Shown piece by piece: positions 46,223 to 59,500 of a stretch of 64,000 nucleotides of DNA. Position 1 is the stretch's first letter. Each line of letters starts with the position of its first letter. The translations under genes and the position numbers were made by a program. The notes beneath the pieces are model-generated. The model was not told where the DNA came from and ran no database searches. It was given only the letters and a program-made list of their open reading frames with translations. The stretch covers positions 2,432,001 through 2,496,000 of the forward strand of contig OZ242296.1 of NCBI GenBank assembly GCA_965207735.1, given 5' to 3'. This DNA comes from Candidatus Versatilivorator sp. (lineage in GTDB: Bacteria > Acidobacteriota > Terriglobia > Versatilivoradales > Versatilivoraceae).

Positions 46223-46458
46223 GGCTCTGATTGGCTGTGGGAAGAGGTCCCGGCACCGGCGTTCCCGCGGGACCGGCCACTGCAAGAAAGGGGGACATTA
46301 TAGGTCGCCGGCAGACACGATCACAAGGTCCCTGCCCGATCCCCTGGCAAACCCCAACCCCGCTCTGCCGTGCGGACCATGCGACAGCGTGACAACGCAT
46401 TCTTATGGGCGATCGGGAGCAAGAACGATGTCCGGCTTGTCTGAAACAACCCCGCAGT

Positions 46459-47853
46459 TCAAGCGGCTGCGATTTGTGGAACCAGGTTGAAACCAAGAGA
46501 CTTAGCAGCATCTTTGAGGCCCGCGAGGCGTCGTCGCCGGAACCGGTCCTCGTAGCACGCTTCCCCGATGTCGATGTAGTCCTGGCCGTAGCGCAGCATG
46601 CGGTAGACGAGAACGGCCAGCCGGCGGGCCATGGAGAAGACGGCGACGGTCCATCCCTTGTGGCGGGCCTTGCGACGGAAGGCGGCCCCCAGAGCGGTCT
46701 TGGAGTGCTTCAGAGAGACGGCTGCCATGCGCAGGACGGCGGCGGCGCGAGTAGACCCGGTGCTGTTGGCCTTCTTGTAGTGGAGCGGCTTGCCTGCGGA
46801 GACGGCCGTTTTTGGAGCCAGGCGCAGCCAGGATACAAAGTGCTTCTCCGAGGGGAAGGCCGTCAGGTCGAGGCCGGCCTCAGTCAGCAGGGTCAGGGCC
46901 GCTTCGGTGCCGATGCCGTCGATGCGCGTCAGATCGACTCCGGCAAAGCGCCACAGTTCGGTGCGCAGGTGGTGCCCACCGCGGCGGCGAATCGCCTTTT
47001 CCTTGATCGCATTGGGATGCTTCGGCACGGGCTGGTCGTGGCGCTCCACCGGTTGCAGCGCCTGGATTTCCTCCAGGAAGCGGGCCTCATAGGCCGCAAT
47101 CTCGCGTTGAGTCATGTCGTAGAGCTTCAGCGCCGACTTGAGGTTGAACAGATGCTCTTCTCGCCAGTTGCCTCTGAGGTGCTCGGCAAACTCCCGGCTG
47201 GACTTCTTGCACCGTCGGTCCCGCAGACCCGCCAGACGGACCGGGTCCCGTTCTCCGTTGACAATCGCCCGCACGATCGCTATCCCCGTCTGACCGGTCA
47301 GATCGGTGACCGCACGATGGATCTGGACGTTCATCTGATCCAGCGCCTTCTGCATCCACTGCACAAAGCGGGTACTCTCGGCCCCCAGAGTGCTCAGTTG
47401 CCGGTGCAGGGTCCGAACCCGGACGATCGCCTCGTGCGGACGGAAGGATCCCCGCAGCAAGCCGCAACTGTGCAGCAACTGGATCCACTGGCAGTCCCGC
47501 ATGTCGGTCTTGCGGCCCGGAACGTAGCGCAACTGCCGGGCGTTGACCAGCAAGACCTCGATGCCGCAGGACTCCAGCAGTTCGTAGAGGGGAATCCAAT
47601 ACACGTTGGTGCTCTCCATCGCCACCGACTCCACCCCTTGCTCCAGCAACCAGTCGGCCAGTTGCTGCAGTTGCTCCATGGTGGTGCCGAAGGTGCGCAC
47701 GTTCGGCTTCCCTGGGGTCACCTCCAGAGCGCACACCCAGTGCTCCCGACTCCCCAGGTCGATCCCTGCCACCTCGGGGTGGATCCGCGACAAGGCTGTC
47801 GAACGGCTGCGCTTCTTCTTCGTCTTCGTGTTGACTTTCCTGCTCTTTTGCAT
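46459..47853 (-). CDS. IS110 DEDD recombinase/transposase
   Basis: GID, MES, KTDxxD RuvC-like DEDD residues; IDGIG and SAGK in the C-terminal domain; SD GAGGAGG. Confidence 0.96.
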   Translation of the reverse strand: MQKSRKVNTKTKKKRSRSTALSRIHPEVAGIDLGSREHWVCALEVTPGKPNVRTFGTTMEQLQQLADWLLEQGVESVAMESTNVYWIPLYELLESCGIEVLLVNARQLRYVPGRKTDMRDCQWIQLLHSCGLLRGSFRPHEAIVRVRTLHRQLSTLGAESTRFVQWMQKALDQMNVQIHRAVTDLTGQTGIAIVRAIVNGERDPVRLAGLRDRRCKKSSREFAEHLRGNWREEHLFNLKSALKLYDMTQREIAAYEARFLEEIQALQPVERHDQPVPKHPNAIKEKAIRRRGGHHLRTELWRFAGVDLTRIDGIGTEAALTLLTEAGLDLTAFPSEKHFVSWLRLAPKTAVSAGKPLHYKKANSTGSTRAAAVLRMAAVSLKHSKTALGAAFRRKARHKGWTVAVFSMARRLAVLVYRMLRYGQDYIDIGEACYEDRFRRRRLAGLKDAAKSLGFNLVPQIAAA

Positions 47854-47874
47854 GAGATTGGCCTCCTCGGCGGC

Positions 47875-48060
47875 GATCACTCCGGCCCGAGTTGGCGTGG
47901 TCGTTCGGATTCTTGTCTTGAGGAGAGCTTCCCGGGAAGCCTCACTAATGAATGATGACCTGCTCGGACCCAGACTTGCCTTGGGGCACGGGGCACCAAT
48001 GCTGGAACGGGGCGTAGCTGCCGGAGTCTCGCCAGGTGCTTATTCTTTCACAATGATCCG
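47875..48060 (-). ncRNA. Candidate IS110 bridge/seek RNA
   Basis: About 200-nt non-coding upstream end with two stem-loops containing internal loops (GCACC/GGUGC; GGUC/GACC with GCUUCC/GGAAGC) and 7-nt matches to the element end and the flank. Confidence 0.6.
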
Positions 48061-48108
48061 TTGTTTCACCCTCGAATGATCCGCCCGTCGTGGGGGGCGG
48101 GGGCGGGA

Positions 48109-48258
48109 CTTGTCTGAAACAACCGACAAAAGACAAAAGAAAAAGACTTATCCACGAAGGGGCGCGAAGGACCACGAAGGGCCACGAAGGCGCTGAGGTT
48201 GGCCGCGACGGGGTGCCAAGTTCGCGAAGGGTTGATCGATTTCCGATTGTTTCACTCT
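48109..48258. mobile_element. Non-autonomous IS110-ended unit (MITE) 1, 150 bp
   Basis: CTtgtctgaaacaacc...gattgtttcactCT; internal CACGAAG repeats. Confidence 0.75.
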
Positions 48259-48291
48259 ATGTATGATCCGCACGGCAGGGCGGGGACCCGG

Positions 48292-48441
48292 CTTGTCTGA
48301 AACAACCGACAAGAGACAAAAGAAAAAGACTTATCCACGAAGGGGCACGAAGAACGACGAAGGGGCACTAAGGCGCTGAGGTTGGCCGCGACGGGGTACC
48401 AAGTTCGCGAAGGGATGATCGTTTTCCGATTGTTTCACCCT
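48292..48441. mobile_element. Non-autonomous IS110-ended unit (MITE) 2, 150 bp
   Basis: Close copy of 48109-48258 with the same termini. Confidence 0.75.
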
Positions 48442-48661
48442 CGTTTGATCCGCCCCGGGGTAGGGTGGCGTGGGCAGGGCTTGCGGGCAAAGGGCGCCGG
48501 TCGGCGTTCAGAGAAGTCGCCCGCCGGCAAGAAGTGCAAGTCTGCCAAGATCCGAGACGCTCGGCGATTGCCTGTGCTAAGCTTCCCTCCCGAATCGAAG
48601 CCGGAGTTGGCCAGCCCGAATCGCTCCGGAATTTTCGAGTCCCAACCCCGCGAGCAGTCCC

Positions 48662-59222: not shown

Positions 59223-59500
59223 CTTGTCTGAAACAACCCTGTTTCACCCTCGGATGATCTGCCCCGTCGTGGGGGGCAGGGGCGCCCCTTGCCTGAAACA
59301 AACGACAAGAGACGAAAGACAAAAGACTTATCCACGAAGGGGCACGAAGAACGACGAAGGGACACTAAGGCGTTGAGGTTAACCGCGACGGGATACCAAG
59401 GTCACAAAGGGATTATCGATTTCTGATTGTTTGACTCTCGAATGATCCGCACGACAGGGCGGGGGCGGGACTTGTCTGAAACAACCGAAAAAAGACAAAA
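59223..59500. mobile_element. Second array of IS110-ended units (28-bp minimal, 151-bp full, truncated third)
   Basis: Units 59223-59250, 59288-59438 and 59471-59500, separated by TGATC-containing spacers. Confidence 0.75.

Follow-up and report, generated by a model that had tools for sequence, protein, structure and literature searches.

A predicted target guide matching the element's own right end as a candidate cause of head-to-tail arrays of an IS110 element and its gene-less miniatures

Layout of the locus

An IS110 insertion sequence (1673 bp) and two short gene-less units (183 and 188 bp) lie head-to-tail in the window, the whole 64,000-nucleotide stretch of DNA that was analysed, which belongs to a closed genome of 5.26 Mb (G000). 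The three elements meet with one CT/AG core per junction. Comparison genomes are denoted G002, G005, G008, G009, G013 and G031, the last from Opitutales. The features of the locus, in window coordinates, are as follows.

46436–48108, minus strand: complete IS110 element, 1673 bp, with the first spacer as its left end; 10 copies in the genome, block absent from G002
46436–46451, minus strand: B box of the IS (right end, donor left arm), TGTTTC-AGACA-AG, with the AG core last; equal to the donor guide in 10/10 copies
46459–47853, minus strand: IS110 recombinase gene, 464 aa; PF01548 (E 2.4e-23) and PF02371 (E 9e-12)
47872–48031, minus strand: predicted bridge RNA, limits approximate, from an alignment fold; its profile matches only the 10 IS copies
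47912–47918, minus strand: predicted left donor guide AGACAAG, covarying with the B-box end across 27 lineages
47975–47981, minus strand: predicted left target guide AGGCAAG, covarying with the upstream target across 27 lineages
48063–48110, minus strand: A box of the IS, including spacer 1 (48073–48108), from comparison of IS copies
48109–48291, minus strand: non-autonomous unit 1, 183 bp, with its B box at 48109–48124 and an interior that is most likely a captured repeat
48249–48293, minus strand: A box of unit 1, including spacer 2
48292–48479, minus strand: non-autonomous unit 2, 188 bp, with its B box at 48292–48307, then the interior
48432–48481, minus strand: A box of unit 2, including spacer 3
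48480–48486, minus strand: terminal junction, CT core and left-target heptamer CCGCAAG; 3/5 non-core matches to the guide

The 10 IS copies in G000 measure 1673–1685 bp, and the copy in the window belongs to the subtype with target guide AGGCAAG and carries donor guide AGACAAG. Its A box is built, in order, from the AG core, 4 nt, a GCCC..GGGC palindrome, GGATCAT and GTGAAAC. Units 1 and 2 are 91% alike over 164 nt and have both termini in common with the IS, and every junction holds a single AG/CT with no target duplication. A diverged member of a further dispersed repeat family begins at the terminal junction. This family has 17 copies, 9 of them preceded by an A box; the copy in the window falls outside that pattern.

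Two further observations concern the surroundings of the locus. A second array from this element family, also in the window, at 59229–59490 on the minus strand, comprises a 60-bp-type mini, a 183-bp unit and a truncated unit split by a TTTTGCAAAA repeat. Just left of the IS, at 46358–46380, lies an inverted partial A-box copy that is 91% identical over 23 nt to spacer 2 and is found in G002 too.

The spacers are ends of the elements

The original prediction described the locus as IS110, a 36-bp spacer (48073–48108), unit 1 (48109–48258), a 33-bp spacer, unit 2 (48292–48441) and a 38-bp spacer (48442–48479), and this layout is indeed seen in the sequence. It was also right that the units share the termini and CT cores of the IS and that the unit interior is unrelated to the IS, with no match to the bridge-RNA profile in 124 units. 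The repeats are real and number 160 units and 10 IS copies genome-wide, far beyond chance. Its view of the spacers as separate, differing targets has to be abandoned: each is the ~45-bp A box, or left end, of the element that precedes it in window order, and the supposed REP-like target consists of the elements' own A boxes. The census of units and flanks that it had proposed was run genome-wide and parsed 225 left ends, 160 of them from this unit family.

Several comparisons place the spacers within the elements. The ~45-bp sequence next to all 10 IS copies is identical apart from one base, which tracks the IS subtype, and the opposite flanks of these copies are mutually unrelated or are the spacers of other elements. 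The mutual information between spacer variant and the element on its window-left side is 1.01, with a maximum of 0.63 among 2000 permutations; for the element on the other side it is 0.60, against a permutation mean of 0.51, and 23/2000 permutations reach 0.60. When runs are read in window orientation, the spacer motif follows nearly every unit, and the flank before the first unit is unrelated host sequence. At the orthologous site in G002, the same flank continues straight into a unit at the unit 1 position, with the IS and spacer 1 absent together, and in four other genomes the array is absent at the orthologous site. Because the spacers follow their element in the IS copies, in the mutual information and at the G002 site, the true units measure 183 and 188 bp, with one CT core per junction.

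An alternative offered with the original prediction, in which the hairpin TGAAACAA-CCGA-TTGTTTCA together with the spacer is a host REP and the IS and inserts sit in its loop, has become very improbable. The end-only element of 60–65 bp (17 copies) does resemble an empty site, and the loop form TGAAACA-ACCC-TGTTTCA occurs in 15 exact copies. However, the empty hairpin TGAAACAACCGATTGTTTCA has no copy in the genome even when 2 mismatches are allowed, and the A box moves together with the insert. All 10 IS copies share one A-box variant that none of the tallied minis carries, 12/17 minis having two related variants of their own; minis were therefore not the sites into which the IS inserted. Minis are also present or absent as whole blocks, and the AG core agrees with the guide covariation. 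In G002, the IS and spacer 1 are missing together. With these results the hairpin-loop alternative, and the CCG core that goes with it, is largely refuted. A guide array of the CRISPR or TIGR kind was considered as well and rejected: there are no unique variable spacers, the spacers being variants of one A box reused genome-wide.

The recombinase and its predicted bridge RNA

The recombinase consists of a PF01548 (DEDD) and a PF02371 (Transposase_20) domain, with the DEDD residues and the conserved Tnp serine present. Among 20 homologues, D32 is conserved in at least 90% and E80, D117, D120 and S352 in all; from what is known of IS621, we take these residues to be catalytic. The loci of the closest transposases come from Candidatus Versatilivorator or from Terriglobia, Acidobacteriota, and the best-ranked plasmid matches have 45–48% identity. 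The layout is not that of the IS1111 group, with the RNA upstream of the gene and a right end of ~25 bp, although an 8–9-bp sub-terminal repeat is present.

The leader upstream of the gene is predicted to be a structured bridge RNA, from a 27-sequence alignment with 35 predicted pairs, 19 of which have compensatory changes. Single-sequence folds are no better than shuffles (z 1.06 for the leader, 0.54 for the unit); the alignment fold alone is informative. A search of Rfam gave no match at E values up to 1. A search of the genome with the bridge-RNA profile returned the 10 IS copies only. The leader contains two 7-nt segments that each end in AG. In a comparison of 27 lineages, the second is identical to the end of the B box at 135/135 non-core positions (permutation mean 73, maximum 97), and the first agrees with the sequence upstream of the element at 104/135 (permutation mean 55, maximum 76 of 10000). 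By analogy with IS621 (PMC11208160; 10.1101/2025.10.25.684509, as far as the accessible parts of these reports describe it), we read the first segment as a putative left target guide and the second as a putative left donor guide.

For this covariation analysis, a guide-blind parser was used; 71 loci were returned, 57 were given to the parser and 50 were parsed, corresponding to 27 lineages. Loci L048, L050, L071, L074, L085, L086, L087, L092, L093, L097, L101, L106, L109 and L110 were excluded beforehand, mostly as truncated, unparsed or near-duplicate. Two of these, L074 and L087, speak against the assignment of the target guide; the more complete Opitutales count given below includes them. 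The A box is probably mis-called in four of the 27 lineages, which lowers the match count.

Right target and donor guides were sought by eye and by flank counts, and no covarying segment was found. The 64 host right flanks have a weak CCG bias only, and the first 4 nt of the A box are variable. An origin of these 4 nt from the target was rejected, because they read TCCC in 10/10 IS copies while the right flanks vary. In 7/64 host right flanks in G000, an extra RCAAG pentamer directly follows the B box, perhaps with the other AG of AGRCAAG as the core. A promoter at the circle junction, searched for by eye, gave no convincing candidate, and the B|A junction of the IS is absent from G000.

Miniatures as probable captured repeats between IS ends

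The strict parse divides the 225 left ends in G000 into 160 units of the family found in the window, 22 of a longer family, 17 end-only minis of ~60 bp, 16 others and the 10 IS copies. Under a looser parse there are 185 runs, 49 of which hold two to six members. The unit is present in 12/13 other genomes of the genus and in 0/17 outside it, among the genomes searched. It is MITE-like in having both parent ends, no transposase and many copies. No conserved RNA fold was detected in 124 units, and none of these units matches the bridge profile; mimicry of part of the bridge RNA by the unit was considered and rejected. Lacking a guide RNA, the units would have to be moved in trans.

The interior has a likely source elsewhere in the genome. 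Outside A-box neighbourhoods, its CACGAAG tract has 129 matches, a number that includes some units with an A box not recognised by the pattern. At G000:C1:2238550-2250400 (L163), intergenic tandem runs of a CACGAAG interior-like module occur without IS ends; these runs, at 2.238–2.250 Mb, surround two paralogous 570-aa genes with signal-peptide-like starts. As an interior-like module exists in end-less runs and the unit has no match to the bridge RNA, the unit most probably arose when a host repeat was caught between two IS ends, and it would rely on the IS for both protein and RNA.

The original prediction further proposed that the units are MITEs moved in trans by the IS. Their non-autonomous nature, IS110 ends, absence of guide RNA and presence or absence as blocks between species all bear this description out, while for the movement itself we infer mobilisation by the IS from filled and empty sites between species. 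The comparison set ~800 kb of G002, taken mainly from the vicinity of its units, against G000. In an automatic test, orthologous flank pairs were present in this G002 sequence for 12/103 runs from G000 (1 empty, 2 the same, 9 different) and in G000 for 9/46 runs from G002 (4 the same, 5 different). Blocks of 60, 143, 184, 185 and 191 bp are found in only one of the two genomes, each corresponding to about one unit of A box, interior and B box; this polymorphism is between species, and two of the five blocks have diverged flanks. The empty site of the 191-bp block reads GAGGCAAG. A search for empty paralogous sites within the genome was dominated by repeats and uninformative, and the unit matches in two RNA runs are to contigs, which cannot show transcription.

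Other kinds of miniature were seen in related genomes. At L012, L025 and L030 (G002, G013), a ~140-bp miniature keeps a remnant of the transposase 3' end and is a plain internal-deletion derivative. A relative in G008 with a non-self guide (L028, L036) has an end-only mini whose deletion is joined at a GGGGA microhomology, and the non-self copies in that genome are separated by real GTGGTCAG target repeats.

Target guides and insertion sites

Target guides in G000 read AGGCAAG or AGACAAG, as do donor guides and B boxes. The target guide AGGCAAG is thus predicted from sequence to be nearly identical to the element's own donor guide and to its own B-box end, and insertion would therefore regenerate the target. 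The A/G variant of the B box follows the donor guide in 10/10 G000 copies. All 10 IS copies in G000, and 111/225 A boxes, lie directly after a B box. At the 97 clearly non-B sites, the guide match is 2.86/5, compared with 1.55 for random AG sites. An element follows 97/201 B-type sites versus 25/1251 bare heptamers, a comparison that is partly circular because B boxes mark arrays; it nevertheless suggests that the GTTTC repeat helps.

A natural control comes from two lineages, at 78–79% identity, that have the same B box and donor guide and the target guide AGGTCAG. None of their 8 copies lies behind a B box, the copies being placed in GTGGTCAG repeats; B|A junctions do exist in these genomes (18 and 28). 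More widely, all 6 lineages whose guides agree at 4/5 positions or more have at least one B-like upstream site, versus 4/21 other lineages, with four of the 6 being close kin. In Opitutales, the matching B box is found on sibling copies. On a tree of 28 proteins, the self-matching label changes three times, and 206/500 shuffles give a number as low, so the label is silent on clustering; a single clade of self-matching lineages, with groups named from guides before the tree was made, is rejected (p-AU 2.6e-48). The predicted self-matching guides are in three separate branches.

The Opitutales genome has 136 B|A junctions, versus 1 and 3 in two genomes with non-self guides. One self-matching genome has just 2 junctions, so a guide match is not sufficient for arrays to form. 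Since the guides of G000 differ by at most one base, the two loops cannot be told apart within this genome. Six copies have unlike guides; in 4 of them the sequence upstream is identical to the target guide, and in 2, one being the window's own IS copy, to the donor guide. The guides are also unlike in 25 Opitutales IS copies, of which 13 have an upstream site nearer to the target guide, 10 have one nearer to the donor guide and 2 are tied.

Growth of the arrays

The best explanation, to which we assign a probability of about 0.6, is that an ISPpu9-like IS110 and two gene-less miniatures stand head-to-tail because the predicted target guide matches the element's own right end, insertion recreates the site, and the array grows by serial insertions. 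What the sequence itself supplies to this explanation is the limits of the elements, their A and B boxes, the AG cores, the guide covariation, the guide-less miniatures and the blocks present or absent between genomes. In the proposed process, the IS would express the recombinase and the bridge RNA, and any segment running from an A box to a B box, whether IS, 183-bp unit, 60-bp mini or several modules, could be copied out as a circle in which B is joined to A at AG. This joining would be read by the donor guide together with the GTTTC/GAAAC inverted repeat, the latter probably read by the protein. The target loop (AGRCAAG) would then direct the circle to the final AG of a B box or, in a minority of cases, to a similar host sequence, where a new array would be founded. 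The newcomer would carry its own B box, so the landing site would stay open. At the present locus, the IS most probably landed behind the B box of a unit that was already there. Arrays formed in this way would be selfish by-products that need no host function.

Serial insertion competes with the view that IS110 placed single miniatures only, and that arrays then arose by in-place duplication, unequal crossover or gene conversion, or as passengers of composite repeats moved by another enzyme. In G000, adjacent units are no more alike than random pairs (median identity 0.859 in 31 pairs versus 0.846, p 0.36); in 3/31 pairs, a unit's closest relative is its neighbour. The B variant upstream of a unit and the unit's own B variant are unlinked in 70 units, and arrays can contain IS, 183-bp, 60-bp and longer modules side by side, linked through the AG core. 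Unlike neighbours, unlinked B variants and mixed modules together favour serial insertion over local duplication in G000, and we regard local duplication or passage with other repeats as a decidedly unlikely origin of the arrays as a whole, although in-place duplication is what the available text of Hu 2026 proposes. Some data do point its way. Chimeric IS copies occur in Opitutales, the G009 arrays have no IS, and some arrays of G009 and G008 have adjacent units of equal length with like ends. Junctions are also inherited as blocks: 9/12 and 14/19 copies of two flanking repeat families share an A-box start. Block-inherited junctions and like neighbours in G009 and G008 indicate that multi-module moves or recombination contribute. 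In G000, an A box precedes 11/12 and 19/19 copies of the repeat families that start CTTACCTGAGAAT and CTTGTTAGCAATT, respectively, with shared first bases; these are composites that spread as blocks.

The same elements and enzyme could also build arrays through the donor loop, by a half-match between the donor guide and the B box of an element already in place; the resemblance of the target guide would then be coincidental or no more than an aid. Insertions that use the left donor match only (LD-only), and donor-only excision, have been reported for IS621 in the accessible part of the work by Xie et al. on half-match recombination (10.64898/2026.08.31.748434), and LD-only matches are retained in repeat units beside IS110 according to the accessible part of another preprint (10.64898/2026.08.14.744561). 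The exact donor-guide match in front of the window IS fits this account, as do the 10/25 Opitutales copies whose upstream site is nearer to the donor guide, and the one ISPpu9 copy that follows a B box although its usual target is a REP. However, 0/8 copies with the same donor guide and a different target guide follow a B box, and 17/21 lineages with unlike guides have no B-like upstream site. LD-only events in IS621 make up 1.1% of reads in the accessible data (10.64898/2026.08.31.748434), whereas 10/10 copies here lie behind a B box. A sibling with target guide AGGTCAG, acting in trans, could equally account for the Opitutales cases. A donor half-match thus seems to us a real but rather unlikely source of the arrays, and serial insertion guided by the target loop remains the preferred reading.

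Relation to known systems

Tandem arrays of this general kind are in print, and the claim in the original prediction that IS110-MITE arrays were undescribed was mostly wrong. In the accessible parts of the publications, MITEPpu9 is reported in tandem with ISPpu9, duplicated in some strains and forming circles (Parés-Guillén 2025; PMC12288879), and Hu et al. count 468 cases of non-coding units beside IS110 and 437 IS-IS tandems (10.64898/2026.08.14.744561). Comparisons below likewise refer to the accessible parts of these sources.

ISPpu9 has a 43-bp A box with GCCC-N4-GGGC that ends in CAAACA, and a B box TGTTTG-N5-AG (PMC12288879). The present IS resembles it in its AG core, ~43–45-bp A box with a GCCC..GGGC palindrome ending AAAC(A), and 16-bp B box TGTTT(G/C)-N5-AG, a likeness of end geometry. 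MITEPpu9 (ssr9) of Pseudomonas putida KT2440 is like the units in being gene-less, having its parent's ends and standing in tandem at a B|A junction and also alone, and its system likewise includes duplicated copies and a deletion remnant of little but ends. ISPpu9 inserts in a host REP (CTGTAGGAG-like sequence upstream in 7/7 KT2440 copies), whereas the present IS lies behind a B box in 10/10 copies. MITEPpu9 has 8 copies and a small RNA related to the IS leader; here there are ~200 miniatures of several families, with an interior unlike the bridge RNA.

The arrays of Hu et al. (10.64898/2026.08.14.744561) are similar in consisting of tandem non-coding units beside IS110 with left-donor matches at the unit borders. 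Their repeats are at least 95% identical by requirement, whereas neighbours here are ~86% alike and units are dispersed genome-wide with both ends. For the origin of such arrays the authors speculate about in-place duplication, and they state that insertion does not regenerate the target; in the present case, unlike in their account, the predicted target guide and the donor end coincide. The IS621-type bridge recombinases (Durrant et al., PMC11208160) share with the present system a DEDD recombinase, an upstream non-coding RNA, covarying guide segments and a dinucleotide core. The recombinase here is longer (464 versus 326 aa), the predicted left guides are 7 nt, no right guide was found, the 4 nt after the core are variable, a 5–8-bp sub-terminal repeat lies far from the left end, and the target and donor left arms are nearly identical.

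A search of the literature found no publication stating that a target guide matches its element's own end; figures and preprint supplements were outside this search and may bear on novelty. The accessible part of a preprint on non-coding clusters (10.64898/2026.10.21.760802) holds nothing on self-matching guides, and a literature search for the host genus yielded no relevant paper. Because IS110-MITE tandems (Parés-Guillén 2025) and repeat arrays (Hu 2026) have been published, most of the earlier novelty claim fails; what appear to be new are the guide-level cause, the scale and the recurrence, the arrays as such being known.

In integrons, circular end-bearing modules, the cassettes, are stacked in one orientation at a site that is still usable afterwards. 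The arrays described here differ in being many and dispersed, with specificity set by RNA, and no attI/attC or gene cassette was seen in the units. We give even odds to the broader proposition that, within one clade of bridge recombinases, target guides have changed repeatedly so as to match the right end of the element itself or of a sibling, and that as a result a self-renewing RNA-guided site stacks end-bearing DNA one way. If this is true, such a system would be integron-like without an integrase, and the published view that IS110 insertion regenerates no target would be overturned. It would also account, in a simple and testable way, for the IS110 tandem arrays that have been counted in recent surveys with no more than speculation as to their origin: seven guide bases would decide between scatter into host repeats and pile-up on self. 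The lineages with the same donor end and different target guides form a natural pair in which reactions of the target loop and of the donor loop could be told apart. With ends of just ~60 bp required and its site regenerated, such a recombinase could be used to stack DNA repeatedly and in order, or for recording, and for editing the same behaviour would be a warning that donor-like guides cause repeat insertions. For the host, the arrays are probably selfish DNA with no function.

Arrays in other genomes

G009, which is closed (one contig, 100% complete), has 193 B|A junctions and no detectable IS110; we infer that the parent IS was lost there after spread. Its arrays (L164–L167) have up to 8 modules of 61–768 bp. 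In the Opitutales genome G031 (L172–L191), up to four full IS copies stand in a row, mixed with miniatures of 156–340 bp, and at least four B-box heptamers coexist, a situation that suggests that the variants target each other. In three Opitutales IS copies the B box reads ACATTAG and does not match the donor guide of the same copy, an indication that copies have recombined with one another. In both G005 and G009 (L042:880-2330, L043:870-2300), an unrelated insert of ~1.4 kb occupies the same intergenic site and reads, from DNA judged by eye, like an ATP-dependent helicase/AlbA-type gene.
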